From contig JAUNTX010000009.1 in the NCBI GenBank assembly GCA_030538475.1, forward strand, positions 9,618 through 73,617: a stretch of DNA of 64,000 nt. Reading direction: 5' to 3'. The number at the start of each line of letters is the position of its first letter. Within the stretch, counting starts at the first letter, position 1. The notes under the pieces were generated by a model, which saw only the letters and a list, made by a program, of their open reading frames with translations, was not told the DNA's origin and made no database searches. The position numbers and the translations under genes were made by a program. Shown one piece after another: positions 2,053-56,773 of this stretch. This stretch comes from Dermabacter sp. (lineage in GTDB: Bacteria > Actinomycetota > Actinomycetes > Actinomycetales > Dermabacteraceae).

Positions 2053-2067
2053 CCGCCGGGCGCCGCC

Positions 2068-11662: not shown

Positions 11663-11669
11663 GGGGTGC

Positions 11670-17999: not shown

Positions 18000-18062
18000 A
18001 CGCGCCAGTGTAGGGGCCGAGGCGCCGTCGCTGCCCCACCAGCCACCCCCTAGACTGGGCTC

Positions 18063-34509: not shown

Positions 34510-35379
34510 TTATACCGCGCTCAGGGCCGCGGCCTCGTGCCCCGTCGAGGCATACAGGTGCAGAAGGCGCTCGACCTCTGACTGGACCGCGCGATTGGCG
34601 GGGGCGATGTAGGCGCGGGGGTCCACGACGCCTGGCCGGGAATGGAGCATGTCGGCCAGCGTCTTGGTGAAGAGCGCATTGAGATGCGTGGAGACGTTAA
34701 TTTTCGTCATCCCCGCCGCGATGGCATCCACCATGCCCGCATCACTCACCCCGGACGAGCCGTGCAGGACGAGGGGGACGGCGAGGCTCTCCGACAGGGC
34801 GGAGATGAGGCGCGTGTCGAGTTGTGCCGAGCGTTCCGTCATGGCGTGGGAGCTTCCTACGGCTACGGCGAGAAGATCGACGCCGGTCTCGTCGACGAAG
34901 GCGCGAGCCTCGTCGGGGCTGGTGCGCGCGCCCGGGGCGTGCACGCCGTCTTTGCCTCCCACCTCGCCGAGTTCGGCCTCGACGCTCAGGCCCTCGGCAT
35001 GGCACATGGTAACGACGAGCGCCGTGGTGCGGACGTTGGTGCGGTAGTCCAGGCGTGAGCCGTCGAACATGACCGAGGAAAACCCGAGCGCGATGGCGTC
35101 TCTGATGAGTCCCAGGTCGTCGGCGTGGTCGAGGTGGACCACGACGGGCACGGAAGCCGCGTCGGCAATCGCCAGAGTGGCCTTCCCGAGCGGAGCGAGG
35201 GCACCCCCGTGGAAGGCGACAGCGTTCTGGCTGATCTGTAGGACGATGGGGAGGCCGGAGGACTCCGCGGCTCGGACCAGGGTCTCGGCGGTCTCGATCT
35301 GAACGACGTTGAAGGCGCCGAGCCCGATCTGCTGTCGCTGCGCGAGCTGTGCAAGGGTGGACAGTGGTGCGAGGGGCAT
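34510..35379 (-). CDS. Class II ketose-bisphosphate aldolase (tagatose-1,6-bisphosphate aldolase GatY/KbaY-like)
   Basis: GAFNVVQIETAETLVRAAESSGLPIVLQISQN…VVVHLDHADD…LHGSSG is the class II FBA/TBP aldolase family. Confidence 0.8.
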   Translation of the reverse strand: MPLAPLSTLAQLAQRQQIGLGAFNVVQIETAETLVRAAESSGLPIVLQISQNAVAFHGGALAPLGKATLAIADAASVPVVVHLDHADDLGLIRDAIALGFSSVMFDGSRLDYRTNVRTTALVVTMCHAEGLSVEAELGEVGGKDGVHAPGARTSPDEARAFVDETGVDLLAVAVGSSHAMTERSAQLDTRLISALSESLAVPLVLHGSSGVSDAGMVDAIAAGMTKINVSTHLNALFTKTLADMLHSRPGVVDPRAYIAPANRAVQSEVERLLHLYASTGHEAAALSAV

Positions 35380-35400
35380 GGTGAGGCTCTTTCTGACGAA

Positions 35401-36345
35401 TTAGGAGGAGAGGGTGACGAGGGGGAGCAGCCGTTCGTAGGTCGGATCGTCGATCAGGCCGGCCACGGGGGCCGCGACCGCCGCGCCAGAGCGCGCCACG
35501 GCCGAGGCCAGCATCGACGTCCAGTCCTCGGCGCCACCGGCGAGGTCGTGGGCGAGGCTCGCCACGACCGCGTCTCCGGCGCCGGTGGCGTTACCGACGA
35601 TGACCTCTCCCGGTCGGGCCCAGAGGGGGCGGCGCGCTGATGCGCGCCCGCGCGGGGCGGGAAAGACCCCGAGGCCGCGTTCACCGTCGGACAGCAGCAC
35701 GCTGACATCGCCGATCGATTGCAGCGCGCGGACGCCCTCGTCGATGGTGGTGGTGCCCGTGGCCTCGAGCAGTTCGGCGCGATTGGGCTTGAGGATCGAG
35801 GCGCCAGCGGCCGCTGCCGCGAGCAAGAGGGGGCCGGACGTGTCCACGATGACCGTTGCCCCGCCCGCGCGGGCGGCGGCAATGACCTGGCTGAACTGTT
35901 CGCCGGTGGCGTTTTGGGGGAGCGATCCGCTAATGGCCACGACGGCGTGGGTGGCACTCAGCGACTCGACGGTGGAGGCCAAGGAGTCCCACGCCGCTTG
36001 GGCCAAAGGGGCACCGGGTTCGTTGAGGAGCAGCCCCGCGCGGTCATCCACCAGAGTGGTCGTGCGGCGTGTTTCTTCGGCTACCTCCACCCACGCCTGC
36101 GTGATGCGTGGATCCAGGAGGTCCTGAAGCATGTGCCCCGTGTGGCCCCCGATGAAGCCGGTGACACTCGTGTCGGTGCCGAGTTGGCGGGCCACCGACG
36201 CCACATTCACGCCCTTGCCTCCGGCACGCGTGGTGACCCGGTGGACTCGGTGGACCTCGTACGGGGTGAGCCGGTCGATGTCGTACGTGATGTCCAGGGC
36301 TGGGTTACACGTGACGGTCAGGATCTTGGCGCCTGCGGGAGTCAT
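35401..36345 (-). CDS. PfkB-family sugar-phosphate kinase (tagatose-6-phosphate / 1-phosphofructokinase-like)
   Basis: ILTVTCNPALDITY…RAGGKGVNVA…, PfkB signature GAGDA. Confidence 0.8.
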   Translation of the reverse strand: MTPAGAKILTVTCNPALDITYDIDRLTPYEVHRVHRVTTRAGGKGVNVASVARQLGTDTSVTGFIGGHTGHMLQDLLDPRITQAWVEVAEETRRTTTLVDDRAGLLLNEPGAPLAQAAWDSLASTVESLSATHAVVAISGSLPQNATGEQFSQVIAAARAGGATVIVDTSGPLLLAAAAAGASILKPNRAELLEATGTTTIDEGVRALQSIGDVSVLLSDGERGLGVFPAPRGRASARRPLWARPGEVIVGNATGAGDAVVASLAHDLAGGAEDWTSMLASAVARSGAAVAAPVAGLIDDPTYERLLPLVTLSS

Positions 36346-37388
36346 GCCGATTCACCCCCGATGCGGTAGAGGGCCTTGAGGATGCTCCCGGAGCCGTGGC
36401 GAATATCGAGAAAGGGCTGTGGACCATCGTCGAGGGAGTATTCGGCGGAGATCAGCCGATCGATGGAGTCGCGGTTGTTCTTGATGAACGCCATGGCCCA
36501 GGTCCACTCGTGACCCGGGAATGGCGCCGAGTAGCTCATCCAATAGCCTTTGATCGTCAGCTCTTTGCGGAGAATCGACTCGAACTCCGACGCCTCGAAG
36601 CTGACCCTCGAGTGCGCCGTGCCCACGAGCGCCACCCGTCCTCCTCTGCGTGTGTGGGTGATGGCTTGGACCTGGGTGGATGGGTGGCCAGCGATTTCAA
36701 TGCTGAGCTGTGGCCACCGTGTGCGCTCGAAGTGCTCGCGGGCGGCTTCTCCCGTATTGGTCACGATGGACGTCGCCCCGAACTCCTTCGCGAGCGCGAG
36801 CCGCTCGGGGGAAATGTCGACCGCGGTCACGGATCGGGCGCCGTTCGCCGTCAGCACGGCTATCGCGAGCAGGCCGATGACGCCGGTTCCGAAGACGGCC
36901 GCGTCCACCCCGTCGATCTGCTGCAGGTCGCCGAGGCAGTGCAGCGCGATGCTGAGTGGCTCGATGAGCGCCGCGTGGCGCAGCGACACGCCTTCGGGTA
37001 GGACGAGGCAGTTGCGGGCGGGAACGCACACGTACTCGGCGAAGGCGCCCTGGCGGCGGGAGCCGATAAAGGAGTAGGTGGGGCACAGCGATGGCCGACC
37101 CTCCATGCACGCAGCGCACGTGCCACACGGCACGAGGGGGGCCACGCATACCCGATCACCCACGCGGGGGCTCCTCACACCCTCTCCGAGCGCCTGAACA
37201 CGCCCGGAGAATTCGTGGCCGAGCACCTGGCCGCGTGAGCGGACGGCGCCGTCAAAGTACCGAGGAAAGTCCGATCCGCACATGCCCGCATAGGCGACGG
37301 CGATGAGGACCTCACCCGGGCCAGGTGACGGGACGGGAATATCGACCAGGTCCATGATCCCGGGGCCATTAATCGCGAGAGCCTTCAT
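36342..37388 (-). CDS. Zinc-dependent alcohol dehydrogenase (galactitol-1-phosphate 5-dehydrogenase GatD-like)
   Basis: GEVLIAVAYAGMCGSDFPRYFDG…GHEFSGRV (zinc-binding) and GTGVIGLLAIA (Rossmann fold). Confidence 0.8.
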   Translation of the reverse strand: MKALAINGPGIMDLVDIPVPSPGPGEVLIAVAYAGMCGSDFPRYFDGAVRSRGQVLGHEFSGRVQALGEGVRSPRVGDRVCVAPLVPCGTCAACMEGRPSLCPTYSFIGSRRQGAFAEYVCVPARNCLVLPEGVSLRHAALIEPLSIALHCLGDLQQIDGVDAAVFGTGVIGLLAIAVLTANGARSVTAVDISPERLALAKEFGATSIVTNTGEAAREHFERTRWPQLSIEIAGHPSTQVQAITHTRRGGRVALVGTAHSRVSFEASEFESILRKELTIKGYWMSYSAPFPGHEWTWAMAFIKNNRDSIDRLISAEYSLDDGPQPFLDIRHGSGSILKALYRIGGESA

Positions 37389-37394
37389 CGTGGA

Positions 37395-38765
37395 TCACCG
37401 CTCCTTCGTGGTCTCTGCCGCGGGCGCGTAGGCGGGCCGGTAGATGCGGCCACGCTTGTAGGCGACGAAGGTGTAGACGAACGACGCCACGTAGAGAACC
37501 AGAATGATGGCAAATCCGAGGCCCATCTCGAGCGTGATTCCTCGAGCCAGCAGGTAGGTGATCGGCGCGCCGCCCTGGTCGAGCGAGGTGAGGGACTTTG
37601 CGTCACCGAGCAGGCCGACGTTGCTGGCCAGCTGCGTGTGCAGCGCGATCATCTGGTTGGAGATCCAGATGGTCATGGCCATGATGACGGATCCCGAGAT
37701 CAGGGTGCGGAAGATGTTGCCCGAGTGGAGGGCCACAGCCATGGCAATAAAGAACCCGATGGTGGCCAGATCGCCGAAGGGCAAGACCTGGTTGCCGGGA
37801 ACGATCACGGCGAGAACGATCGTGATGGGGACGAACAGGATGCCCGCGGAGACCACTTGCGGATCGCCGAGGAGCAGTGCCGGGTCGAGCCCGATGCGGT
37901 AGTCCGAGCTCTTGAACCGCTTCTGCAGCATCTGCTTGGCCGCATCCGCGATGGGCAGGAGGCTCTGCATGATGAGCTTGACCACCATGGGCATCAGGAG
38001 CATGACCGCTCCCATGGCGACACCCAGCTGGAGGGATGGGCCCACGCCGTAGCCGGCGAGGAGGCCGACGATGAGGCCAAGGATCGTGCCCACCACGAGG
38101 GGCTGGCCGAAAGGACCGAGGTATTTCTCGAGCTTGTCGGTCGTGAGCGTGATGTTCCGGATCCCGGGAATCTTGTCGATGGCATCATCGATGGGCTTGG
38201 CGATGACGCCCATGTACGCCGCCGTGCCGTGGGGAATGGCGACGCCCTCGAGTCCGAAGTACTCGTCGGTCGCCTGCCCGTACATGTCACCGAGCTTGTA
38301 GGCGAGGGCGGAGTGCACCACGATCCCGACGATGGCCCACCAGTAGCTTCCGGTGGCGATCTGCACGATGGCGCCGGTGAAGGCGAAGTGCCAGATGTTC
38401 CAGATGTCGACGTTGACCACGCGCGTCATCTTGGTCACGAGCATCACGATGTTGGTGAGGATCGCGACGGGGATGGCGAGCAGGCCCATGCTCGAGGCCC
38501 AGGCCATCGGGGAGGAGCCGGGCCACCCGATATCGACCACGTTCAGGCCCACGTTGAAACGCTCGGCCATCGCCTCTGCCGCCGGGCCAAGGTTCGAGGT
38601 GAGGAGTCCGACGACGAGCCCGATGCCGACGAAACCGACGCCGATGGTGAGGCCCGAGACAAGAGATTTGCCGAAGCCTCGCCGGAGGCAGAGGCCGATG
38701 ATGAAGATGACCAGGGGGAGCATGACGCTCGGCCCGAGATCGACGATGTACTGGATGGCTTCCAT
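37395..38765 (-). CDS. PTS galactitol-specific EIIC component
   Basis: MEAIQYIVDLGPSVMLPLVIFIIGL… multi-pass membrane protein typical of the GatC family. Confidence 0.85.
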   Translation of the reverse strand: MEAIQYIVDLGPSVMLPLVIFIIGLCLRRGFGKSLVSGLTIGVGFVGIGLVVGLLTSNLGPAAEAMAERFNVGLNVVDIGWPGSSPMAWASSMGLLAIPVAILTNIVMLVTKMTRVVNVDIWNIWHFAFTGAIVQIATGSYWWAIVGIVVHSALAYKLGDMYGQATDEYFGLEGVAIPHGTAAYMGVIAKPIDDAIDKIPGIRNITLTTDKLEKYLGPFGQPLVVGTILGLIVGLLAGYGVGPSLQLGVAMGAVMLLMPMVVKLIMQSLLPIADAAKQMLQKRFKSSDYRIGLDPALLLGDPQVVSAGILFVPITIVLAVIVPGNQVLPFGDLATIGFFIAMAVALHSGNIFRTLISGSVIMAMTIWISNQMIALHTQLASNVGLLGDAKSLTSLDQGGAPITYLLARGITLEMGLGFAIILVLYVASFVYTFVAYKRGRIYRPAYAPAAETTKER

Positions 38766-38932
38766 GAGGGTGTCCCTGTGACTCGTAGTTTTTGGGTGTG
38801 CTTCGCCCCGCTTAGTACTCGGGGAGTAAAAAGCGTGCAGGGGGTGTGGTGGAGGGAGGTGCGCTGTGTCAGCGACGGCCGCTGTGGCCGAAAAGGGGGG
38901 GGCGGAGAGGACGGAGGCGCCCCGAGGGGCGT

Positions 38933-39208
38933 CTAGCTCAGTGCCTCGATGATGCGGGCCTCAGTGGCCTCGACATTGATTCCTGAAATGAAGGCGAGGC
39001 CGTGCACGACAGGAACCGGGTACTCCTTGTGGATTTTCGCGGTCGTGACGATGAGGTCTACGGTGTCCGCATAGGAGTCAAGTTCGCCGATCCTTGCTTG
39101 GAAGACATCGACGGGGATGGAGTGTTCGGCGCACAGCTCCCGAACTCTATTGGCTGCCACGGTTGACGTCGCAACCGCACCGCCACACGCAACAACGATC
39201 TTTTTCAT
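38933..39208 (-). CDS. PTS galactitol-family EIIB component
   Basis: MKKIVVACGGAVATSTV… (phospho-Cys at CGG), 91 aa. Confidence 0.8.
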   Translation of the reverse strand: MKKIVVACGGAVATSTVAANRVRELCAEHSIPVDVFQARIGELDSYADTVDLIVTTAKIHKEYPVPVVHGLAFISGINVEATEARIIEALS

Positions 39209-39244
39209 GGTGGATTCTCCTGTGATCCGAGTGTCCTCAGTGCT

Positions 39245-39712
39245 CTAGTGATGCCGTGAGGAGGTGAGAGGGGCGAGGGCCCGGTGGGCGTCTTCGGGGG
39301 AGTGGGCCGAGAGGAGTTGAGCGCGAACGTCGCTGTCCTGAAGCGCACCGATCAATCGCTGGAGGGTCGCGAGGTGGTCGTCGGCTGAGGAGAGCACAAG
39401 GAAGATGACGAGGCTCGCGCTGATGGTGTCGTTCTCACCGCCGCCCATCTCGTTGAAGGTGAGTGGAGGCTCCGGGCGCACCAGCACCAGCGCGTTGTCG
39501 ATAACGTGTTCAGCGCTCGTGTGCGGGATGGCGACGCCGCCGGGAATCGGGAGGCCCGTGGGGTATTCACTCTCGCGCTCGTTGAGCGCGGTGATGTAGG
39601 TATCGCGAACGATCCCGTCGGCGATGAGCTGGGTGCCGACGTGGTCGAAAAGCTCTTCCTTGCTGGCGAACGTGCGCTGTTGGCACACGATGATGCGAGG
39701 CGTCGATGTCAT
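39245..39712 (-). CDS. PTS EIIA component (mannitol/fructose/galactitol EIIA family)
   Basis: PTGLPIPGGVAIPHTSAEHV (active-site His region). Confidence 0.8.
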   Translation of the reverse strand: MTSTPRIIVCQQRTFASKEELFDHVGTQLIADGIVRDTYITALNERESEYPTGLPIPGGVAIPHTSAEHVIDNALVLVRPEPPLTFNEMGGGENDTISASLVIFLVLSSADDHLATLQRLIGALQDSDVRAQLLSAHSPEDAHRALAPLTSSRHH

Positions 39713-40482
39713 GATGTGGCTCCGGCTGCTTGAGTGAGGTGTGGGTGGTCGAGGGCATCGACGATGGAGGGGTCAATATCGGCGATGGAATCCGTGAGGA
39801 TCTCGGTGAACTCCGTTGCGGTGGCGACGGTGTGTGGGGCAATGACCCCAAACTTGGTGTGATCGGCGAGCAAGATGGAGGTTCCGCACTGCCGCATGGC
39901 TGCCGCCGAGACGTGAGTCTCTTCCATATGCGGGTTGGTGACCCCGGCACGCGGGTGGATACCAGCGCAGCCGAAGAAGCCCAGGTCCATGTTGAGCATC
40001 GCGAGGTTGCGCAGGGTGGGCGCACCGTACAGGGACTGTTCGTTGGCGCGGATCTTCCCACCCGGCAGGATGGTCGTGATGTGCGCCGAATCGGCGAGGA
40101 GCGAGGCGATCGGGAACGAGTTGGTGATGACGGTGAGTTCGGGTTGCGCGAGGAGGGATCGCGCGAGCACGTAGTTCGTGGACCCGTAGTCAAGAAAGAT
40201 GGTCATCCCGGGCTCCACGAGGGCGGCCGCGTGGGAGGCGATGGCCTGCTTCTCGCTGAGCTGGCTCGCACGGCGCGCATGATAGGCGCTTTCGGGTGCG
40301 GTGACCTTGCCGACCGCGCCGCCGCGTACCTGCGTGAGGAGGCCCTGTTCGTCGAGGGCCTGGAGGTCCTTGCGAACCGTTTCTCGGCTGGCGCCCAGCT
40401 CTTTGCTGAGTTCGGCAATCTGTACGCTGTCCCGTTCGTCGAGGACGGCGAGGATGCGCTGGCGGCGTTCACCATGTCTCAT
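39709..40482 (-). CDS. DeoR-family transcriptional regulator (GatR-like)
   Basis: N-terminal HTH QRILAVLDERDSVQIAELSKELGASRETVRKDL and C-terminal DeoR sugar-binding domain. Confidence 0.85.
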   Translation of the reverse strand: MRHGERRQRILAVLDERDSVQIAELSKELGASRETVRKDLQALDEQGLLTQVRGGAVGKVTAPESAYHARRASQLSEKQAIASHAAALVEPGMTIFLDYGSTNYVLARSLLAQPELTVITNSFPIASLLADSAHITTILPGGKIRANEQSLYGAPTLRNLAMLNMDLGFFGCAGIHPRAGVTNPHMEETHVSAAAMRQCGTSILLADHTKFGVIAPHTVATATEFTEILTDSIADIDPSIVDALDHPHLTQAAGATS

Positions 40483-40520
40483 GGGTGGTCCTTTGTCGCG
40501 CTGGAGTGGCTACGCGCACT

Positions 40521-45720: not shown

Positions 45721-46515
45721 ATGCGCATTGCACGATTCACGACTGGCAGCGACCCGATGTTCGGGATCATCCAAGACAAAGACGGCGTGGACACGGTGTA
45801 TGGCCTCACCGGAGACCCGCTCTACACCGAAATTCAACCGAGCGGCGTCATCGTGCCCCTGGAGGACGTGCGGCTGCTCGCCCCGGTGATTCCCCGCTCG
45901 AAGGTGGTGGGGGTAGGCAAGAACTACGCCGATCACGCCGCGGAGATGGGCACCGAGGTGCCCGAAATTCCGCTGCTGTTCCTCAAGCCCAACACCACCG
46001 TCATCGGCCCGGGCGATCCGATCATCACTCCCGAGTTCACCGACGAACTGAGCCTCGAGGCCGAACTCGCGGTCGTCATCAAGCGGGTGGCCAAGAACGT
46101 CACGGCGGCAGATGCCGCGGACTACATCTTCGGCTACACGTGCGCGAACGACCTCACGGCGCGCGACGCCCAGCGCGCGGAAAACCAGTGGTTCCGCGCG
46201 AAGGCGTTCGACACGTCGTGCCCGCTCGGCCCCTGGATCGAGACGGACCTCGACCTCGACTCGGGGCTCCGCGTCACCTCGCACGTGGACGGGGAGATCC
46301 AGCAGGACGGCACCACCGCCGACATGCTGTGGTCCCTCCCCGCCCTCATCGAAGAGATCACGAAGGTCACGACCCTGCTGCCGGGCGATGTCATCCTCAC
46401 CGGCACGCCCGCCGGGGTCAGCCTCGTCACGCCCGGCCAGAGCATCGATGTCACGATCGACGGCATCGGCACCCTCACCAACCGCGTCCTTCGCGCCGAC
46501 GACCTCCAGGCCTAG
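45721..46515 (+). CDS. Fumarylacetoacetate hydrolase (FAH) family protein
   Basis: [17 protein letters not shown]…LFLKP…GPGDPI…ELAVVI… is the FAH fold; lies directly upstream of gltX, as the Rv2993c homologue does. Confidence 0.85.
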
Positions 46516-46565: not shown

Positions 46566-48086
46566 GTGAGCACCACCACCTCGCTCCCGCTGGCCAGCCA
46601 GCGCGGCGTCGATAACGTCCGCGTGCGCTTTTGCCCCTCGCCCACCGGCACCCCCCACGTGGGCATGGTCCGCACCGCCCTGTTCAACTGGGCCTACGCC
46701 CGCCGCACGGGCGGCACGCTCGTGTTCCGGATCGAGGACACAGACCAGCAGCGCGATAGCGAGGAGAGCTACCACCAGCTGCTCGACGCGATGCGCTGGC
46801 TCGGCATCACGTGGGACGAGGGCGTGGAAGCGGGCGGCAACGACGGCCCGTACCGCCAGTCGGAGCGCGCGGAGATCTACCAGGAGGTCATCCAAAAGCT
46901 CAAGGACGGCGGCCACATCTACGAATCGTTCTCCACCCCGGAAGAGATTCAGGCCCGACACGTTGCCGCGGGGCGGCCCAAGGAATCCGGCTACGACGGC
47001 TTTGACCGCGACCTCAGCGCCGAGCAGATCGAGGCCTACCGCGCCCAGGGGCGCGCGGGCGTGTGGCGCATGCGGATGCCGGAGACCGACGTGAGCTTTG
47101 ACGACCTCGTGCGGGGAGAGATCACGTTCAAGGCCGGATCCACGCCCGACTTCGTCGTGGTCCGCGGCAACGGCCAGCCGCTGTATACGCTGACGAACCC
47201 CGTCGATGATGCCCTCATGGGCATCACGCACGTGCTGCGCGGCGAAGACATCCTGAGCTCCACGCCCCGCCAGATCGTGCTCTTCGAGGCCCTCAAGGCC
47301 ATCGGTGTCGCGGCCGCCACCCCCGTCTACGGCCACCTGCCGTACGTGCTCGGTGAAGGCAACAAGAAGCTCTCCAAGCGCGACCCCGAATCCAACCTCT
47401 TCCTCTACCGCGACCAGGGATTCCTGCCGGAGGGCATGGTCAACTACCTCGCGCTGCTCGGCTGGGGCTATAGCGCCGATCAGGACGTCTTCACCCGCGA
47501 GGAGTTCGTGGCGAAGTTTGACGTGGCCAGCGTCAACCCGAACCCCGCGCGCGTGGACCTCAAGAAGGCACAGGCCATCAACGCCGACCACATGCGGATG
47601 CTGCCCGCCGCGGACTTCACCGAGCGGATGGTGCCCTACCTGGAAAAGGCGGGCGTGGTGAGCACCCCGATCACGGCCGACGAGCACGCGCTGCTCGTGC
47701 GCGCCACCCCGCTCGTCCAGCCCCGCATGAACCTGCTCGGCGAAGCCCCCGACATGCTCCGCTTCCTGTTCACCGCCGATAGCGACCTCGTGGTGGACGA
47801 GGATGCCCTCAAGAAGCTCGGCGATGATCCCGCGGGTGTGGTGCGCCGCGCCATCGAGGTCATCGAACTCGGCGGCGAAGACGCCTTCGACGCGGCAACG
47901 CTCGAATCCTCCCTGCGCACCGCGATCATCGAGGAGATGGGCGTCAAGCCGCGCCTCGCCTTTGGCCCGCTGCGCTCGGCGATCTCCGGCAGGCGCGTGA
48001 GCCCGCCCCTGTTCGAATCGATGGAACTGCTGGGGTTCGTCTCGACCCTGGCCCGTCTGCGCGCGTTCTTGGCCCTGGTGGCCTAG
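46566..48086 (+). CDS. gltX: Glutamate--tRNA ligase
   Basis: [26 protein letters not shown] (HIGH motif) and KLSKR (KMSKS). GTG start preceded by AAGGAGAA. Confidence 0.92.
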
Positions 48087-48097
48087 GGGTCCATCGC

Positions 48098-49210
48098 ATG
48101 TCAGTGAACACCGGTGCGTACGGTGTGGGCCGCGCGCACGCCAAAGCGATCCTCATCGGGGAACACGCGGTGGTGTACGGGCACCCGGCCATCGCGTTTC
48201 CCGTTCCCGCGCTCAGGATCTCCGCGACCGCGACCCTGCTGCCGTTTCCCGACGCCGGACGCGGCGGGCACGAGGGCGTTGCCCTCGACGGCTCCCTCAC
48301 CATCGACGGCGTTCCCACACTGGATGGGACGCTGCGGATGGACGGCGCCCTCACCCTCGACGTGCCCTCGAGCGACACGGGGGATCGGCGCGGCAAGCGT
48401 CGCGTGGCCACCGTCGGCGATCCCTCCACCGGGGCCATCTACGTGGACCTGCACGGCGATCACGGCGAGGACGAGCTCGCGCATTCCGCGCTGCGCACGA
48501 TCCTCACCCACGTGGGTCAGGAGCCCGGCCGCGCCGAGGTCCACGTCGAAGGCAGCATCCCCACGGCCCGCGGCCTCGGATCCTCGGCCGCGATGGCGAG
48601 CGCGATCGCCGTGGCCGTCGCCCGCCTGTACGGCCACGAACTGACGAGCGAGGAGCGGTTCGAGCTCGTGCAGTTCGTGGAGCGCATAGCGCACGGCACC
48701 CCGAGCGGGCTCGATGCCTACGCGACGATGGCCGACGGCCCCCTCTGGTTCCAGGAGGGCCGGGCAGAACCCCTCGCGGTCGAGACCCGGCCCGCGCTGC
48801 TCATCGCCGACACGGGCATGCCGGGCCGCACACTGGATGCCGTGGCCGACGTGCGCCGGCTTCGCGGGCAGCAGCCCGAGACGGTCAATCCCGCGCTCGA
48901 GACCATCGCCTCCCTCGCGCACGAGGCGCGCGAAGGGCTCGGAACGGGGGACCTTGTTTCCGTCGGCTGCGCGATGAACGCGTGCCACGACGTGCTGCGC
49001 TCCCTCGGCGTCTCCCACCCCGCCCTCGATACGCTCGTCGAGGCCGCCCGCGAGGCCGGGGCCCTCGGGGCGAAGCTCACCGGCGGCGGCCAGGGAGGCT
49101 GCATCATCGCCCTGGCGCCCTCGGGCGCCGAACTTCCCGGTATCGCCCGCGCCCTGCGGGCCGCCGGGGCCACCCACGTGTGGGACGTCCACGAGGAGGA
49201 CCAGGAATGA
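48098..49210 (+). CDS. mvk: Mevalonate kinase
   Basis: GHMP kinase: GRAHAKAILIGEHAVVYG, PTARGLGSSAAMASAIA. First gene of an operon whose genes overlap. Confidence 0.85.
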   Translation: MSVNTGAYGVGRAHAKAILIGEHAVVYGHPAIAFPVPALRISATATLLPFPDAGRGGHEGVALDGSLTIDGVPTLDGTLRMDGALTLDVPSSDTGDRRGKRRVATVGDPSTGAIYVDLHGDHGEDELAHSALRTILTHVGQEPGRAEVHVEGSIPTARGLGSSAAMASAIAVAVARLYGHELTSEERFELVQFVERIAHGTPSGLDAYATMADGPLWFQEGRAEPLAVETRPALLIADTGMPGRTLDAVADVRRLRGQQPETVNPALETIASLAHEAREGLGTGDLVSVGCAMNACHDVLRSLGVSHPALDTLVEAAREAGALGAKLTGGGQGGCIIALAPSGAELPGIARALRAAGATHVWDVHEEDQE

Positions 49211-50199
49211 GCACGGCAACGGCCATCGCACACCCGAACATTGCGCTCGTGAAGTACTGGGGGAAGGCCGACCACGCGCTGATCCTCCCGGCCACGGGCT
49301 CGCTTTCCTTCACGCTCGACATCTTCCCAACCACGACCGAGGTGAGCCTCACCGACGGGCCCGAGGACTCGGTTGAGCTGGACGGCGCCGCCCTCACCGG
49401 AGAGGAATCGCGCAGAGTCGTCGAGGTGCTCGACCTGGTGCGCGAGGCCGCGGGCGCGAGCGCGCGGGCGCGCGTGATCTCGACCAACACGGTGCCGACG
49501 GCCGCCGGGCTCGCCTCAAGCGCCGCCGCCTTCGCGGCCCTCGCGACAGCGGCCGCAGCCGCCTACGGCCTCGAGACCACGCCCGCGGAACTCTCGCGCC
49601 TTGCCCGCCGCGGCTCCGGCTCCGCGTGCCGCTCCATCTTCGGCGGCCTCGTGCGCTGGGACCAGGGTACGGATGACGCCACGAGCGTGGCCCGCCCCCT
49701 CGAGTGGGCGGGGGAGGATCTCGCGATGATCGTCGCGGTGCTCTCGAGCGACCGCAAAAAAATCGGCAGCCGGGCCGCCATGAAGCTCACCGAACAGACC
49801 TCGCCGTACTACGCCGGGTGGGTGGCCTCCAACACCGTCCTGCTCGAGCGGGCCACCGAGGCCGTTCGCGCCGGTGACTACGAGAGCCTCGGCGAGATCG
49901 CGGAGATGAGCGCCCTGCGCATGCACGCCTCGATGTTCGGCGCGGAGCCGCCCGTCCGCTACCTCACCGCCGACAGCTTCGCCCTCTTCGATGCCGTCGC
50001 CGAGCTGCGCGCCGAGGGCCTGCTCGCCTACGCGAGCGCCGACGCGGGCCCCAACGTGAAGATTCTGTGTCGAGCTCGTGAGGCCGGGGATCTGGCCGCG
50101 CGCCTGCGTGAGAGGATGGCGGGCGTGACCCTCCATACCGCCCATGCCGGCCCTGGCGCCTTCCTCGCATCCGAGGCTGCGCCACCCGCCGCCACATGA
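49207..50199 (+). CDS. mvaD: Diphosphomevalonate decarboxylase
   Basis: AHPNIALVKYWGKADHALILPATGSLSFTLD and TAAGLASSAAAFAALA are MVD signatures. ATGA overlap with mvk. Confidence 0.88.
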   Translation: MSTATAIAHPNIALVKYWGKADHALILPATGSLSFTLDIFPTTTEVSLTDGPEDSVELDGAALTGEESRRVVEVLDLVREAAGASARARVISTNTVPTAAGLASSAAAFAALATAAAAAYGLETTPAELSRLARRGSGSACRSIFGGLVRWDQGTDDATSVARPLEWAGEDLAMIVAVLSSDRKKIGSRAAMKLTEQTSPYYAGWVASNTVLLERATEAVRAGDYESLGEIAEMSALRMHASMFGAEPPVRYLTADSFALFDAVAELRAEGLLAYASADAGPNVKILCRAREAGDLAARLRERMAGVTLHTAHAGPGAFLASEAAPPAAT

Positions 50200-51353
50200 G
50201 CACAGTTCGCGCCCCGGGCAAGCTGCTCATCGTGGGCGAATACTCGGTGGTGCGGACCGGACGGCCCGCCGTGGTCATCGCGATGGATGCGGGCATCCGC
50301 GCCGAGGCCCGCGCACTGTCCACCGCGCCAGGATCGCGCCCCGCCACTGGACTTGGCGCATTGGTGGCCTCGTCGGCCTTCGCCGACTCGCCCCTGACCT
50401 GGACGCCCGCGCCCTTGAACGCCCCCGCGGCGGACCGCGCGGCTCGCGAGCCCGCCCTGCGAGCGCTCGATGTTCTCGCCGCCTACGCACACGGCGCCGG
50501 AGCGGCCCCCACGCCCCTCGACATCACCCTCACCTCGAGCCTTGCCGACGACGCCGGCACGAAGTACGGCCTTGGCTCCTCCGGCGCCGTCGTCGTGGCC
50601 GTGGTCGCGGCCGCCGCCGACGCCTGGGGCCTCGACCTCGAGCCCGACACGCTGTTTCGGGTGAGCGCGCTCGCGGTCATCGCGGGGAGCCCAAGCGCCT
50701 CGTGCGCCGACGTGGCCGCGTCCGTGCTCGGAGGCTGGATTTTCTTCCGCTCGTTCGACCGCGCGGCCGTCCTGGAGCGGGCGCAGAGCGATGGCGTGCA
50801 CGCCGCGGTTCACGCGCCGTGGCCGGGCCTTGAACTGCGCCCCCTGCACGTGAGCGAGCGCCTGCGCGTGCTCGTCGGCTGGAGCGGATCGCCCGCCTCG
50901 ACCGCGAACCTCGTGGCCGCGCTCGACGAGGCCGCCGCGACCGGCGCCATGGACCTGGAGGAGTGGGCAGAGCGCAGCGAAGCCGCGACCCTCGCGCTCG
51001 CCCGAGACCTCGAGGCGGGAGACATCGCCGGTGTGCTCGACGGCATCCGCGCCTCCCAGCGCCTCCTCGCGGACCTGGATCACGGGGCGCGCGGCGACGG
51101 CCGGGCGCTCGGCATCCTCACCCCGGCGCTCGGGCGCATGATCGACATCGCGGAGGCCCACGGCGCCGCGGCGAAGATCTCCGGCGCGGGCGGGGGAGAC
51201 TGCATGATCGCACTCACCGACCGCGACGAGGTATCCACTCGCGTGCAGCAGACGTGGCGCAGCGAAGGCTTCACCCCGCTCGACCTGGGCCTCGGCGCCC
51301 TCCTTGTCACGACCACCCATCCCGCCCCCGCATTCGAGGAGGAGCACCGATGA
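50196..51353 (+). CDS. Phosphomevalonate kinase (GHMP type)
   Basis: APGKLLIVGEYSVV…, GLGSSGAVVVAVVAA, GAGGGD. Confidence 0.8.
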   Translation: MSTVRAPGKLLIVGEYSVVRTGRPAVVIAMDAGIRAEARALSTAPGSRPATGLGALVASSAFADSPLTWTPAPLNAPAADRAAREPALRALDVLAAYAHGAGAAPTPLDITLTSSLADDAGTKYGLGSSGAVVVAVVAAAADAWGLDLEPDTLFRVSALAVIAGSPSASCADVAASVLGGWIFFRSFDRAAVLERAQSDGVHAAVHAPWPGLELRPLHVSERLRVLVGWSGSPASTANLVAALDEAAATGAMDLEEWAERSEAATLALARDLEAGDIAGVLDGIRASQRLLADLDHGARGDGRALGILTPALGRMIDIAEAHGAAAKISGAGGGDCMIALTDRDEVSTRVQQTWRSEGFTPLDLGLGALLVTTTHPAPAFEEEHR

Positions 51354-52435
51354 ACGAATCGAGAAAAGACGACCACGTGCGGCTGGCGATGGAGCAAAAC
51401 TCCCGCAGGCGCCGCGCCGTCCACTTCGACGACGTGCGGTTCATGCATCACCCCCTCGCCGCCGTCGATGTCGCCTCCGTCTCGGTGGCCACCTCGATCG
51501 ATGAGACCCAGTGGGACCTCCCGTTCTTCATCAACGGCATGACGGGCGGCAGCGACTTCACGGGCCAGCTCAATCGCTCGCTGGCCATCGCCGCCGCCGA
51601 TACCGGCATCGCAATGGCGTCGGGGTCCATGAGCGCCTACTTCAAGAATCCCGCGTGCGCCGAAAGCTTCACGGTGCTGCGCGAGGAGAACCCGCACGGG
51701 TTCCTCATGGCGAACCTCTCCGCCAACGCGACGCCGGAGCAGGCGCGCGAGGCCGTGGACCTCATCGACGCCGACGCCCTGCAGATTCACATCAACCCCG
51801 TGCAAGAAATCGTCATGCCGGAGGGGGACCGAGAGTTCACCCATCGCCGCCGGGCGATTGAACGCATCGTCGGCGCCGTGAGCGTACCCGTGATCGTCAA
51901 GGAGGTGGGTTTCGGGATGAGCGCCGACACGGTGCTGCGCCTGGCCCGCCTGGGCGTGCGCTACGTGGACGTGGCCGGAAGCGGCGGCACGAATTTTGCG
52001 CGCATCGAGAACGCCCGGCGCTCCGGCGAGAACTTCCCCCTGCTCGATGACTGGGGGCACAGCGCCGTCGAAAGCCTCATCGATGCCCGCGGCGCCGCCC
52101 GCGACTCCGGTGTGGGCCTGCTGGCCTCCGGCGGGGTGCGCACCCCGCTCGACGTGGTCAAGGCCCTCGCGCTCGGCGCGCGCGCCGTGGGCGTGGCCGG
52201 GAGCTTCCTCGCCATCGTGCGCAACGACGGCCCGGACGCCCTCATCGAGGAGATCGAGCTGTGGCGCGAGCAGGTGCAGGCCATCATGGCGCTGCTGGGC
52301 GCCGAGACCGTGGACGCGCTGACCAGCACGGACCTGCTCATCACGGGCGAGGTGCGCGACTTCGCCGATGCCCGCGGCATCGACATGACCCGGTACGCCC
52401 GCCGCAGCGCGAGCCGCCACGCGGGAGGGGAATGA
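51350..52435 (+). CDS. fni: Isopentenyl-diphosphate delta-isomerase, type 2 (FMN-dependent)
   Basis: FFINGMTGGS…, VIVKEVGFGMS, ASGGVR are IDI-2 signatures. GAGGAG RBS. Confidence 0.85.
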   Translation: MNESRKDDHVRLAMEQNSRRRRAVHFDDVRFMHHPLAAVDVASVSVATSIDETQWDLPFFINGMTGGSDFTGQLNRSLAIAAADTGIAMASGSMSAYFKNPACAESFTVLREENPHGFLMANLSANATPEQAREAVDLIDADALQIHINPVQEIVMPEGDREFTHRRRAIERIVGAVSVPVIVKEVGFGMSADTVLRLARLGVRYVDVAGSGGTNFARIENARRSGENFPLLDDWGHSAVESLIDARGAARDSGVGLLASGGVRTPLDVVKALALGARAVGVAGSFLAIVRNDGPDALIEEIELWREQVQAIMALLGAETVDALTSTDLLITGEVRDFADARGIDMTRYARRSASRHAGGE

Positions 52436-52436
52436 C

Positions 52437-53483
52437 ATGAGTGCTCAGAATCAGGAGTTCGCCCAGATCCCGATGGCGTGGATCGGCCCGCTGCGCCTGA
52501 GCGGCAATGTGACCAGCGGCGAGATCGAGGTACCGCTCGCGACGTACGAGACCACCCTGTTCCCGTCGGTCAAGCGGGGCGCCACCGTCTCCCGCCTCGT
52601 CGAGGGGGGCATTCGCGCCACGCTCGTGGACGAACGCATGACCCGCTCGATCCTCTTTCGGGCCGACAGCGCGGCGGATGCTCACCAGGCGGCGCAGCGG
52701 ATCACCGAGGACCTTCCCGCGCTGCAGCGGGTCGTGGCGGGCACGAGCCGGTTCGCCACCCTGATCGACGTGGCCCCGCACATCGTCGGCAACCTGCTGT
52801 ACCTGCGCCTCGAGTTCACGACCGGTGACGCGGCCGGGCACAACATGGTGACCCTCGCCGCCGATGCGCTCATGCCCGCCATCGCCGAACGTGAGCCCGC
52901 CCTGCAGTACGCGAGCATTTCCGGCAACTTCTGCACCGACAAGAAGGCGTCGGCCGTCAACGGAATCCGCGGGCGCGGCAAGAACGTCATCGCGGAGATC
53001 ACGCTTCCGGCCGAGGTGCTGCGGCGCCGGCTGCGCACGAGCGCAGAGCGCATGATGGACCTCAACGTTCGCAAGAACCTCGTCGGCGGGATCGCCGCGG
53101 GATCCCTGCGCAGCGCGAATGCGCACTACGCCAACATGCTGCTCGGCTTCTACCTGGCCACCGGCCAGGACGCCGCGAACATCGTGGAGGGCTCCCAGGG
53201 CATCACCCACACCGAGGTGCGCGGCGAGGACCTCTACTTCTCGTGCACGATCCCGCACCTCATCGTGGGCAGCGTCGGCAACGGCAAGGGCCTGGACGGC
53301 GTGACCCGCACGCTCGAGCGGCTCGGATGCCGCGAGGAGCGGGAGCCGGGCGATAACGCGCGGCGCCTCGCCGTTCTCGCCGCCGCGACGGTCCTGTGTG
53401 GCGAACTGTCGCTCATGGCCGCACAAACGAATCCGGGCGAGCTCATGGCCGCCCACATCCAGTTCGAACGGAGTTCTCGATGA
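52437..53483 (+). CDS. Hydroxymethylglutaryl-CoA reductase (short actinobacterial form)
   Basis: TGDAAGHNMV, GNFCTDKKASAVN, GTVGG-like HLIVGSVGNG are HMGR catalytic-domain motifs. Confidence 0.8.
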   Translation: MSAQNQEFAQIPMAWIGPLRLSGNVTSGEIEVPLATYETTLFPSVKRGATVSRLVEGGIRATLVDERMTRSILFRADSAADAHQAAQRITEDLPALQRVVAGTSRFATLIDVAPHIVGNLLYLRLEFTTGDAAGHNMVTLAADALMPAIAEREPALQYASISGNFCTDKKASAVNGIRGRGKNVIAEITLPAEVLRRRLRTSAERMMDLNVRKNLVGGIAAGSLRSANAHYANMLLGFYLATGQDAANIVEGSQGITHTEVRGEDLYFSCTIPHLIVGSVGNGKGLDGVTRTLERLGCREEREPGDNARRLAVLAAATVLCGELSLMAAQTNPGELMAAHIQFERSSR

Positions 53484-54661
53484 CACCGGTGCCGCTCGGC
53501 ATTGACGATATTTCGGCCGCGACGGGCTCGCTCATGTTCCCGCTCGCCTCCCTCGCCGACGCGCAGGGCACGAGCGCGGGCAAGTACCACCGCGGCATCG
53601 GCCAGGTGGAAATGAGCCTCCCGAGCGCCGACGAGGACATCGTGACCCTCGCGGCCCGAGCCGCCGCCCCCATCATCGAGCGCCACGGGACGGCCGGGAT
53701 CCGCACGGTCCTCTTCGCGACCGAATCCGGCATCGATCAGTCCAAGGCCGCGGGCATCTTCGTCCACGAACTCCTGGGTCTCGATCCTCACGTGCGTGTG
53801 GTGGAGCTCAAGGAGGCGTGCTACTCCGCGACCTCTGCCCTCCAGTTCGCGCTCGGTCTCGTGGCCCGCAGGCCTGACGAGAAGGTGCTCGTCATCGCGT
53901 CCGACGTGGCCCGCTACGAACTCGACTCAAGTGGCGAGGCTACCCAGGGCAGCGGCGCCGTCGCGATGCTCGTGACCGCGAACCCCCGCATCCTTCAGAT
54001 CGAGGACGCCTCCGGCCTGTTCACGGAGAACGTGCACGACTTCTGGCGCCCGAACGATCGCAGCACCGCCATCGTTGACGGCCGCTACTCCGTGACCGTG
54101 TACCTGCGCGCCGTCGAAGCCGCGTGGAACGACTACCTGAGCCGCGGGGGCGCCGAGTTCGCCTCCATCGCCCGCGTGTGCTTCCACCAGCCGTTCACGA
54201 AGATGGCCGCCAAGGCCATGCAGACCCTCGCCAAGGTGGCAGGGGCAGACGACGTGGCCGCGCGCGTGGCCTCGCTCGAGGACACGATGGTGCTCAACCG
54301 ACGCCTCGGCAACTCCTACACGGCCTCCACCTACATGGCGCTGCTGTCCCTCCTCGAGGGCGGCGCGCTCGACGCGGGGGAGAGGGTCGGTGTCTTCAGC
54401 TACGGCTCCGGCGCCGTCGCGGAGTTCTTCACCGGCCTGCTCGTCGACGGCTACCGCGACCAGCTGCGGCTCGGGGCCATGGACCGGATGCTCGACGAGC
54501 GCCGCGTCATCGAATACCCCGAGTACCGCGAGCGACACATCGCCTTCGACCGCGTGGGCGACCTCGAGACGCCGCACGAAACGTCCGGGCCCTTCCGCTT
54601 CGCTGGCGTGCGCGACTCGATCCGCGTGTACGAGAAGCTCGAGGGCTCTCCCAGCGCCTGA
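53480..54661 (+). CDS. mvaS: Hydroxymethylglutaryl-CoA synthase
   Basis: Thiolase-fold initiation enzyme: LGIDDISAATGSLMFPL…, EACYSATSAL (active-site Cys), HQPFTKM. Confidence 0.85.
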   Translation: MTPVPLGIDDISAATGSLMFPLASLADAQGTSAGKYHRGIGQVEMSLPSADEDIVTLAARAAAPIIERHGTAGIRTVLFATESGIDQSKAAGIFVHELLGLDPHVRVVELKEACYSATSALQFALGLVARRPDEKVLVIASDVARYELDSSGEATQGSGAVAMLVTANPRILQIEDASGLFTENVHDFWRPNDRSTAIVDGRYSVTVYLRAVEAAWNDYLSRGGAEFASIARVCFHQPFTKMAAKAMQTLAKVAGADDVAARVASLEDTMVLNRRLGNSYTASTYMALLSLLEGGALDAGERVGVFSYGSGAVAEFFTGLLVDGYRDQLRLGAMDRMLDERRVIEYPEYRERHIAFDRVGDLETPHETSGPFRFAGVRDSIRVYEKLEGSPSA

Positions 54662-54759
54662 TCCGGGCCGGGGTAGCGCATGCCACACCCCGAGAAGTTG
54701 GCGGCCAGGCACCCCGTGAGCTAGAGTTTTATTTCGTTCGGCCTTGGCCGGAAATACCC

Positions 54760-54834
54760 TGGGGTATGGTGTAATTGGCAACACGGCTGATTCTGGTTCA
54801 GTTGTTCTAGGTTCGAGTCCTGGTACCCCAGCCA
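54760..54834 (+). tRNA. tRNA-Gln (anticodon CTG)
   Basis: Cloverleaf folds by hand: acceptor TGGGGTA/TACCCCA (U1-A72 as in bacterial tRNA-Gln), D-stem GTGT/ACAC, anticodon stem GCTGA/TCAGT, loop TTCTGGT, T-arm CTAGG-TTCGAGT-CCTGG, G73 then CCA. Confidence 0.85.
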
Positions 54835-55017: not shown

Positions 55018-55917
55018 TCACTCCCAGATATGACGCTGTGGATTCCACGCGCCTGTTGCGGCGGACGTGAGCACCGGATCAGCGAACCCGGCCACCGCGG
55101 TGAGAACGTCGGCGAACGATGCTGGGAGCTCTGCCTCACGGTGCGTTCGCGTGCGCCAGGCGCGGTACTTCTGTTGAGCCCCTTCCTGCATTGGGTCAAG
55201 TGTGGGCAGCAGTGGTGCGAGGTCAACCGTGCGGTACTCCGCGACGGTCTCAAGTGACGCACGAAGGTCGCTGGCATCGACCGGGTGGAGCCCGACGAGC
55301 GTATAGACGTCGGCGAAGTCGCGCCAGCGGGTGTTGGCCACTCCGCGGTCGATGGCGGTCACGATCTTCTCCGCGAGCACCATTGTGAGTGGGTAGCCGA
55401 GGAGCCTGACAGTGGGTTGGTCAAGAGGCACGATGCGTGGCAAGTCGATGAGGCGCGGTGCGGGCCAGATCGGGTCACCAAAGTTCACGTCTATACCGAT
55501 CGCCAGCCGAGATTTCCCCAGATGTGCCGTGAGCTTCACTCGGACTCCCGCATACTCGTCGGCGTCTCGAATCGTTGTTGCGGTGATGCTGGAGGGGTCG
55601 AAGATGAGCCCGTCGGGAACAGTCAGAGCAGCGATGGCGCGAACCCGCTCGGTGACTTCTTCTGGATCTCCCGAAAGTCGGGTGGCTTGCAGATCGATGT
55701 CCTTCGTCGGCCGGCGCGCCGCGAAGGCTGCGAGGAGGACGCCGCCCTTGAGCACGAAGTCCTCCCGGTACGCAGATGCCGTGATCCGCGCCAAGAGTCC
55801 TTCGAGGGCATACAGCGTCATCAGTTCTTGAACGTCGGCCCCCGTGCGCCGGGCGAAACTGCGAATGGCAATGGCAGCGTCGCCAGCAGGGGTTCCATGT
55901 TGCGGAAGTGGGGTCAC
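55018..55917 (-). CDS. AbiEii/AbiGii-family nucleotidyltransferase toxin (DUF1814)
   Basis: MTPLPQHGTPAGDAAIAIRSF…EDFVLKGGVLLAAFAARRPTKDIDLQA… is the AbiEii NTase fold; 4-nt overlap with the upstream AbiEi gene. Confidence 0.8.
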   Translation of the reverse strand: MTPLPQHGTPAGDAAIAIRSFARRTGADVQELMTLYALEGLLARITASAYREDFVLKGGVLLAAFAARRPTKDIDLQATRLSGDPEEVTERVRAIAALTVPDGLIFDPSSITATTIRDADEYAGVRVKLTAHLGKSRLAIGIDVNFGDPIWPAPRLIDLPRIVPLDQPTVRLLGYPLTMVLAEKIVTAIDRGVANTRWRDFADVYTLVGLHPVDASDLRASLETVAEYRTVDLAPLLPTLDPMQEGAQQKYRAWRTRTHREAELPASFADVLTAVAGFADPVLTSAATGAWNPQRHIWE

Positions 55918-56495
55918 AGCAGAACCTCCAGGGCCTGCCGGATGGCAGGAAGCGCCGACGGGAAGTTGCCCGCCATGGCAAGCAGCGTGCCGGGGCTACT
56001 GTCGCGCCTGCTCAACCACTGCTTGAGAGAGCCGATGGCAAGGTCGCTGCCCCACGCGTGCCGCAACCGGAATGCATCAATCAGCGTGCGTTCGGCCGAG
56101 TACAGGCCAATGGAGCGCCCGCCCGGCAGGGCGTATTGATCGCGGCCGATGTCAAAAGTGTCGGTGGCGAAGCTGTGCCAGGTAATAGGCGCGTGACGGA
56201 CGGTGACAGGCTGTGTGCCACGGGGGATAGCGATGTCGCTGCGAGTGGGGATTTCGTCGGTGAGCCCATGGAGAGACAGCGCCGTGAGAAGGCACAGTGT
56301 TGCGTCGGGCTTCTTCGTTGTGATCGCCATCCATGCCGCGGTGGTGTCATCTGTGAGTCCTGCGCGGAGAAAAAGGCCGGGCGAGACGCGCTCGAACTCG
56401 CCTGAGCTAAGAAGGAGGTCGAGGCCGTGGCGGGTGAGTCCCTGGTGGGCGAGGTCTTCGTAGCGAAGGAGGTCGGGCAGTGTCGCGGTATCCAT
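55914..56495 (-). CDS. AbiEi-family antitoxin/transcriptional regulator
   Basis: MDTATLPDLLRYEDLAHQGLTRHGLDLLLSSGEFERVSPGLFL is the AbiEi N-terminal winged-helix domain. AGGAGG RBS; paired with AbiEii. Confidence 0.75.
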   Translation of the reverse strand: MDTATLPDLLRYEDLAHQGLTRHGLDLLLSSGEFERVSPGLFLRAGLTDDTTAAWMAITTKKPDATLCLLTALSLHGLTDEIPTRSDIAIPRGTQPVTVRHAPITWHSFATDTFDIGRDQYALPGGRSIGLYSAERTLIDAFRLRHAWGSDLAIGSLKQWLSRRDSSPGTLLAMAGNFPSALPAIRQALEVLL

Positions 56496-56697: not shown

Positions 56698-56773
56698 GCC
56701 CCGTTCGTCTAGCGGCCTAGGACGTCGCCCTCTCACGGCGGTAACACCGGTTCAAATCCGGTACGGGGTACCA
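56698..56773 (+). tRNA. tRNA-Glu (anticodon CTC)
   Basis: Acceptor GCCCCGT/ACGGGGT (G1·U72, common in actinobacterial tRNA-Glu), short D-stem GTC/GAC, anticodon stem TCGCC/GGCGG, loop CTCTCAC, T-arm ACCGG-TTCAAAT-CCGGT, A73 then CCA. Confidence 0.8.

Follow-up and report, generated by a model that had tools for sequence, protein, structure and literature searches.

A Streptomyces-type mevalonate cassette between gltX and tRNA-Gln in a Dermabacter genome

In analyzing a 64,000-nucleotide (nt) stretch of a Dermabacter sp. metagenome-assembled genome (MAG; GenBank assembly GCA_030538475.1, contig JAUNTX010000009.1), referred to here as the window, we observed that six plus-strand genes of the mevalonate (MVA) pathway fill positions 48098 to 54661, between the glutamate-tRNA ligase gene gltX and a tRNA-Gln gene. 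We consider it likely, with a probability of roughly 0.75, that this block is a standard actinobacterial (Streptomyces-type) MVA cassette that entered a single time, in the common ancestor of Dermabacter and the lineages nearest to it, at a site flanked by the stop codon of gltX and the promoter of tRNA-Gln, and that it has been passed on vertically ever since.

The six-gene cassette

The genes follow one another in the order mvk, mvd, pmk, fni, hmgr, hmgs, with the following coordinates, products, and best-supporting family models (score and cut-off in bits).

48098–49210, plus strand: mvk, mevalonate kinase (MVK), 370 amino acids (aa); TIGR00549, 244 (cut-off, 163)
49207–50199, plus strand: mvd, diphosphomevalonate decarboxylase (MVD), 330 aa; TIGR01240, 292 (cut-off, 171)
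50196–51353, plus strand: pmk, phosphomevalonate kinase (PMK) of the Gram-positive type, 385 aa; TIGR01220, 275 (cut-off, 166)
51350–52435, plus strand: fni, type 2 isopentenyl-diphosphate isomerase (IDI-2), dependent on flavin mononucleotide (FMN), 361 aa; TIGR02151, 376 (cut-off, 281)
52437–53483, plus strand: hmgr, class I NADPH-dependent 3-hydroxy-3-methylglutaryl coenzyme A (HMG-CoA) reductase (HMGR), short actinobacterial form, 348 aa; PF00368, 287 (cut-off, 27)
53480–54661, plus strand: hmgs (mvaS), HMG-CoA synthase (HMGS), 393 aa; TIGR01835, 457 (cut-off, 360)

A first-pass annotation made from the sequence alone had described this block as a six-gene MVA operon with tight coupling and four overlaps, and both points were borne out by the open reading frames (ORFs) and the hidden Markov model (HMM) matches. 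ATGA start/stop overlaps join the genes at four places (49207, 50196, 51350, and 53480) and suggest translational coupling, while fni and hmgr are separated by a 1-nt gap. The spacer between the gltX stop codon (48086) and the mvk ATG measures 11 nt. A public contig (L148) that is 100% identical over 47360 to 53778 gave equal protein lengths (370, 330, 385, 361, and 348 aa) with an independent gene caller. Across the six consecutive, co-oriented genes, family matches had E-values of 1e-72 to 1e-137, which cannot be chance.

In the HMM search, five of the six products passed their NCBIfam equivalog cut-offs, among them the type 2 IDI that had been proposed for the operon. The expectation that all six would match their families thus held outright for five and, for HMGR, through PF00368; against TIGR00533, HMGR scored 293 bits, below the cut-off of 441.8, with profile positions 70 to 402 covered, because the N-terminal segment of that profile is absent from the protein. 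Its NCBIfam matches were to class I models only, and its best Protein Data Bank (PDB) matches were likewise class I enzymes, namely, archaeal 6hr7 (1e-70) and human 1dq8. The conserved Glu (PLATYE), Lys (CTDKK), Asp (ATGQD), and His (AAHIQ) residues aligned with these PDB relatives. HMGR had been described earlier as short, but its homologues span 346 to 355 aa in all cassettes that we fetched, so this length is the normal one for the cassette.

All three GHMP kinases (MVK, MVD, and PMK) are present, which marks the route as classical and not as the archaeal variant. Models of the decarboxylase and kinase of the archaeal variant stayed far below their cut-offs (NF040704, 155 versus 475 bits; NF040847, 38 versus 560 bits), again arguing for the classical route. 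Judged by its family matches, the block makes up a full classical MVA operon, predicted to lead from acetoacetyl-CoA to isopentenyl diphosphate (IPP) as well as to dimethylallyl diphosphate (DMAPP). From the roles of the respective families, HMGS would condense acetyl-CoA with acetoacetyl-CoA, and a thiolase encoded elsewhere would have to supply the latter. The class I HMGR would then reduce HMG-CoA to mevalonate with NADPH, MVK, PMK, and MVD would convert mevalonate to IPP, and the FMN-dependent IDI-2 would interconvert IPP and DMAPP.

Insertion behind gltX and its age

Our comparison set consisted of 74 gltX loci fetched with 10-kb flanks. Among these, the cassette lies directly 3' of gltX only in four (L001 to L004), which represent one Dermabacteraceae MAG and three Dermabacter species. 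The same arrangement was found in further Dermabacter-like contigs (L085 and L088 to L090) and in a divergent metagenome scaffold from ENA (L080; 46% GC), which reads FAH-gltX-MVA-tRNA-Gln (FAH, a gene of the fumarylacetoacetate hydrolase family) and whose gltX is 77% identical to that of the window. When metagenomes were scanned with HMGS, the only additions were Dermabacter-like contigs with this same arrangement and distant cassettes (≤52% identity).

The arrangement without the cassette is far more widespread. Of 21 relatives that we scanned, 16 have tRNA-Gln and tRNA-Glu ∼0.1 to 1 kb 3' of gltX, and in Demequina (L019) tRNA-Gln lies 2.6 kb 3' of gltX. Wherever the contig was long enough, this gltX-tRNA-Gln-tRNA-Glu order was present in the loci of Brachybacterium, Helcobacillus, Arthrobacter, and Nocardioides, and it was seen in other Dermabacteraceae as well; in these groups, tRNA-Gln(CTG) is followed 30 to 100 nt later by tRNA-Glu(CTC). 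Since it reaches outgroups as distant as Nocardioides, we take the cassette-free order to be ancestral and the cassette to be inserted, and the earlier suggestion that the cassette interrupts a gltX-tRNA arrangement is thus well supported.

The phylogenies are consistent with a single entry. In a marker tree of gltX and FAH, the cassette-bearing lineages were monophyletic (82% bootstrap), with Helcobacillus and L007, both of which lack the cassette at the gltX locus, as their sister group. The tree of the six concatenated cassette proteins was congruent with the marker tree, uniting the window with Dermabacter (100%) and then both with L080 (99%).

Dermabacter species (D. hominis NBRC 106157, D. 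indicis, and Dermabacter sp. p3-SID358) share with the window the insertion site, the gene order, an insertion within MVK, and the flanking genes (helicase, FAH, gltX, the cassette, tRNA-Gln, tRNA-Glu, Usp, IclR, leuCD, murA, and gpsA). The window differs from them in its GC content (69%, versus 62 to 64%; 0.689 versus 0.62 to 0.645 by locus), in the 11-nt gltX/mvk spacer that stands in place of a 4-nt overlap (as in the Dermabacter contig L085), and in an AbiE module between its two tRNA genes. The source is a genome of the Dermabacteraceae, and its gltX is 84% identical to that of an uncultured Dermabacteraceae MAG and 82% identical to those of Dermabacter spp. A look-up of MVK retrieved a 100% identical NCBI protein from a Dermabacter sp. 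MAG and a Logan contig; an exact look-up of HMGS returned no record. Given the GC gap and the gltX identity to Dermabacter, the source of the window may be a neighboring genus-level lineage rather than Dermabacter proper. PMK is 44 to 46% identical to its Dermabacter orthologues, compared to 65 to 88% for the other five cassette proteins. Synonymous sites are saturated at such distances.

The MVK insertion is specific to the gltX-linked clade. In alignments, it corresponds to residues ∼47 to 118 of the window protein (48236 to 48451), is 45 to 70 aa long, and combines a variable part of D-G-x-L-T-like repeats with a conserved basic part, G-D-R-R-G-K-R-R-V-A-T-V-G-D-P-S-T-G-A-I-Y. It was present in the window, L001, Dermabacter, and L080 and absent from Paramicrobacterium, Leucobacter, Plantibacter, Brachybacterium, Ruania, Streptomyces, and all other homologues inspected. 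An AlphaFold2 model of MVK (predicted template modeling score, 0.82) was confident over the GHMP core and superposed best on solved mevalonate kinases; throughout the insertion, where the predicted local distance difference test score is <50, the model is unreliable.

The features that surround the cassette are as follows.

45721–46515, plus strand: FAH-family (Rv2993c-like) gene, upstream neighbor of gltX; Pfam FAA_hydrolase, 232 bits, and Rv2993c-like_N
46566–48086, plus strand: gltX, glutamate-tRNA ligase; TIGR00464, 406 bits; GTG start preceded by AAGGAG
54698–54727, plus strand: promoter-like element of tRNA-Gln; −35 TTGGCG, 18-nt spacer, −10 TAGAGT; conserved
54760–54834, plus strand: tRNA-Gln (CTG); ARAGORN and Rfam RF00005, 58 bits
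54838–54866, plus strand: terminator-like hairpin, with a T run behind its 12-bp stem
56698–56773: tRNA-Glu (CTC)

The FAH gene keeps its position 5' of gltX in all relatives, and 98 nt separate the end of hmgs from tRNA-Gln. Within this interval, the −35/−10-like element, which probably acts as the tRNA-Gln promoter, is common to Dermabacteraceae and Paramicrobacterium. Because it is kept both with and without the cassette, the insertion point would lie 3' of the gltX stop codon and 5' of this element. A scan of 45.5 to 57 kb with the Escherichia coli sigma-70 consensus returned no promoter-like sites and thus also missed the tRNA-Gln element, which was recognized solely through its conservation. 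Terminator-like sites were found neither between gltX and mvk nor between hmgs and tRNA-Gln, and the hairpin directly after tRNA-Gln is the first such plus-strand site 3' of gltX. Given that the gltX-mvk gap is only 11 nt long and free of terminator- and promoter-like sites, transcription most likely reads through into the operon from the FAH/gltX promoter, and the genes would then form a single, constitutively expressed housekeeping unit. An Rfam scan of 43 to 58 kb detected nothing beyond tRNA-Gln and tRNA-Glu.

A comparison of GC content at third codon positions (GC3) and of codon usage with the flanks had been proposed as a check. By both measures, the cassette equals its flanks: its genes have a GC3 of 0.883 to 0.914, versus 0.887 ± 0.035 in 34 other window genes, and a codon-usage distance of 0.049 to 0.063, versus 0.058 ± 0.016. 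For hmgs, GC3 rises from 0.42 in L080 to 0.81 in Dermabacter and 0.91 in the window, in each case near that of the adjoining gltX, and the base composition of the cassette thus fully follows each host. No integrase ORF was found among the window ORFs, and searches for att-like direct repeats at the block edges yielded only chance matches in GC-rich coding DNA.

It is against these results that a recent genomic island integrated at a tRNA gene has to be weighed. The block does end 98 nt 5' of a tRNA gene, and the clearly foreign AbiE module lies just downstream. However, the marks of a tRNA-targeted island (an integrase, repeats of the tRNA 3' end, and atypical composition) are all absent, and the block lies 5' of tRNA-Gln and its conserved promoter rather than at a tRNA 3' end. 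Furthermore, it is common to Dermabacter, with the identities of all cassette proteins other than PMK comparable to that of gltX. We therefore regard a recent island as extremely improbable; the simplest history would be one ancient insertion followed by vertical descent.

The gap between the two tRNA genes showed a different pattern. In the window, it contains a complete type IV toxin-antitoxin (abortive-infection) pair on the minus strand, AbiEii (55018–55917) and AbiEi (55914–56495), with PADLOC scores of 266 and 152 bits, respectively. Its GC3 (0.71 for AbiEii and 0.76 for AbiEi) is below the window value of 0.887, and its codon-usage distance (0.10 to 0.12) exceeds the background maximum of 0.092, so the pair looks like a recent insertion. 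While this gap measures 30 to 100 nt in most relatives, it holds 4 to 5 kb of differing cargo in L077 (12895–16945) and L019 (14120–19273); in L080, acyltransferase and ABC-transporter genes follow tRNA-Gln (from 11343), and no tRNA-Glu was found in that locus. The recurrent insertion hot spot is thus the tRNA-Gln/tRNA-Glu gap and not the gltX/tRNA-Gln gap.

The cassette at other loci

The same order (mvk-mvd-pmk-idi2-hmgr-hmgs) on one strand was also observed in L075, L077, L078, L081, L083, and L084, at a variety of locations. The cassette lies between parE and parC in Leucobacter, adjoins gltB and lacks fni in Plantibacter, is embedded in a rhamnose-utilization region in Brachybacterium sacelli (L075, 4787–11158), occupies yet another locus in Ruania (L083), and, in Streptomyces tuirus (L084), has an ABBA prenyltransferase gene and genes of the phenazine type nearby. 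The B. sacelli cassette groups with that of Ruania (100% bootstrap) and not with that of Dermabacter, and there were therefore at least two acquisitions of an MVA cassette in Dermabacteraceae.

Because the cassette resides at other loci in other Micrococcales, horizontal acquisition appears to be the best reading of its origin. The first-pass annotation had viewed the block as horizontally acquired at a tRNA-proximal hot spot; its acquisition part is favored by these other loci, whereas a recent tRNA island is contradicted by the flank-like composition, the lack of an integrase or repeats, and the vertical inheritance throughout the clade.

In Paramicrobacterium agarici (Microbacteriaceae) and a related MAG (L077, 3971–12712; L081, 3944–12676), the cassette again adjoins gltX but on its 5' side, in the order FAH-[MVA]-gltX-tRNA-Gln. 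Paramicrobacterium shares with the window the six-gene cassette and the FAH-gltX unit, and its cassette proteins are among the nearest outside the clade (HMGS, 65 to 68%; HMGR, 75 to 76%), but its MVK lacks the insertion and its gltX is of the Microbacteriaceae type. We rejected cotransfer of gltX with the cassette between Paramicrobacterium and Dermabacteraceae, as each gltX groups with its own family. One could imagine that entry into the FAH-gltX unit on two occasions, 3' in the Dermabacter clade and 5' in Paramicrobacterium, was no accident, in that riding on a growth-rate-linked constitutive operon lets the MVA pathway take over and the 2-C-methyl-d-erythritol 4-phosphate (MEP) pathway be lost. 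In that case, the basic element of the MVK insertion (G-x-R-R/H-G-K-R-R...PSTGAIY) might be a regulatory or interaction element added in connection with this takeover. We regard this whole idea as quite unlikely to be correct.

The Paramicrobacterium location, together with the wide distribution of the cassette in Micrococcales and its invariant gene order, could also be taken to mean that no insertion occurred and that the ancestor of the Dermabacteraceae or the Micrococcales already carried a cassette behind gltX, which was lost repeatedly in Brachybacterium, Helcobacillus, and others. Such a history is very unlikely, given that the cassette-free order extends to Nocardioides, that each other lineage has the cassette at a different locus (in Paramicrobacterium, on the opposite side of gltX), and that the B. 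sacelli cassette belongs with Ruania. A single insertion in the ancestor of the Dermabacter clade remains our preferred explanation.

The best-known counterpart is the nphT1-nphT7 cluster of Streptomyces sp. CL190, in which the cassette was first cloned and the nphT1-T6 order was described (Takagi, Kuzuyama, and Seto; reviewed in PMC5509993). It shares with the window the six enzymes, their order, the single orientation, and the tight packing, as well as a short (∼350-aa) class I HMGR and a type 2 IDI; HMGS of the window is ∼55% identical to Streptomyces homologues. The first-pass annotation had stated that the gene order differs from that of Streptomyces, but it is identical to nphT1-T6 (and to L084); all that the window lacks is nphT7 and the biosynthetic genes next to it. 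Unlike in CL190, no nphT7-type acetoacetyl-CoA synthase gene was found 3' of hmgs, where tRNA-Gln is located instead, and the cassette is joined to gltX in core-genome synteny rather than lying inside a terpenoid/meroterpenoid cluster.

We also compared the window with the MVA operons of Firmicutes (Staphylococcus, Streptococcus, and Enterococcus; mvaK1-mvaD-mvaK2 plus mvaS/mvaA), with which it shares the classical MVA route, the Gram-positive-type PMK, and IDI-2. In these Firmicutes, the classical MVA pathway is the sole source of IPP, HMGR is of class II (mvaA), and the MVA genes are split over two or more operons, whereas the window has a class I HMGR and a single six-gene operon.

Pathway role and significance

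By Pfam annotation, the window represents core actinobacterial chromosome. Its leading part carries moxR/DUF58/VWA genes, a cysteine desulfurase gene, mnmA, ligA, gatAB, ilvD, ilvBNC, serA, leuB, and leuA, with the ORF at 18054 to 18359 ahead of gatA being presumably gatC. There follow a gat-type phosphotransferase system (PTS)/tagatose operon, a DUF3516 helicase gene, an Exo/endo-phosphatase gene, FAH, gltX, and the MVA cassette, and then tRNA-Gln, the AbiE pair, tRNA-Glu, Usp, IclR, leuC, leuD, murA, and gpsA. The gat-type operon (34510–40509, minus strand) encodes a class II aldolase, a PfkB kinase, a Zn-dehydrogenase, PTS EIIC-GAT and EIIA, and a DeoR regulator; with a GC content of 0.62 to 0.66, below that of its surroundings, it may be an accessory sugar-utilization island. 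Two separate modules of a MoxR-type AAA ATPase and a DUF58 protein, the first also with a VWA protein, lie on opposite strands at 1 to 5438 and 10433 to 12980.

No terpene synthase, prenyltransferase, or thiolase gene was found in the 64-kb window, and the genes flanking the cassette are all housekeeping genes. The absence of an attached terpene synthase, one of the points first read from the sequence, was thus confirmed and extends to prenyltransferases. Homologues of the MEP pathway were not found in the window or near gltX in 86 loci when we used tblastn with E. coli Dxs, Dxr, IspF, IspG, and IspH sequences, the only match being a Dxs/transketolase-like one in an unrelated MAG; Pfam annotation of the window likewise contained no MEP gene.

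A published survey lists Dermabacter vaginalis as having the mevalonate (MEV) pathway only, Devriesea as having the MEP pathway, and Brachybacterium as mixed (Qabar et al. 2026, PMC13001223 Table S1). The proposed role of the cassette in primary isoprenoid supply fits the D. vaginalis entry. By analogy with it, the cassette is most likely the main, and probably the only, source of the IPP and DMAPP that go into undecaprenyl phosphate and menaquinone, and the MEP pathway would have been lost. That the cassette would serve primary supply rather than secondary metabolism is supported by the housekeeping context and the lack of nphT7 and terpenoid genes, in addition to the published MEV call.

Alternatively, the cassette could encode an accessory second pathway, with a working MEP pathway kept and the MVA pathway being extra or conditional, as is the case in Streptomyces, in Mycobacterium marinum, and in certain Microbacterium species. 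Dual-pathway actinobacteria are well documented, and the same cassette coexists with the MEP pathway in several genera of Micrococcales (PMC13001223 Table S1). On the other hand, the survey records only the MEV pathway for the nearest named genus; the cassette, fused as it is to an essential housekeeping gene, has stayed intact across a clade ranging from 46 to 69% GC; and there is no adjoining terpenoid, prenyltransferase, or nphT7 gene of the kind seen in Streptomyces tuirus. On balance, an accessory role seems unlikely, though not negligibly so, and we favor the cassette as the primary isoprenoid source of the organism.

Several points weigh against our interpretation of the insertion and its role. 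Microbacterium, Leucobacter, and Ruania bearing the cassette usually keep the MEP pathway (PMC13001223), with both pathways listed for 6 of 23, 1 of 6, and 1 of 4 entries, respectively (Table S1 therein). An enzyme forming acetoacetyl-CoA was not found within the 64-kb window. Cotranscription with gltX and the enzyme activities are both predictions from sequence. Finally, the trees were built by neighbor joining on few taxa, and the sister relation of the clade's cassette to those of Leucobacter and Paramicrobacterium, which would bear on the donor lineage, received only 51 to 52% bootstrap support.

Much of this picture is already known: the cassette and the order of its genes, its patchy occurrence among Actinomycetota, and the classing of Dermabacter as MEV only have been published or annotated, and the genes are correctly named in the NCBI record of this MAG. 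The exact insertion point, the single origin in the clade, and the coupling to gltX are only minor additions. Bacteria with only the MEV pathway are intrinsically insensitive to fosmidomycin and are not known to make (E)-4-hydroxy-3-methyl-but-2-enyl pyrophosphate (HMBPP), the antigen of Vγ9Vδ2 T cells. What the locus would illustrate is the swap of a whole essential pathway, in which a housekeeping operon took in a cassette of six genes that then became fully ameliorated; going by the published genus-level call, this capture accompanied the disappearance of the MEP pathway from an actinobacterial lineage associated with skin.

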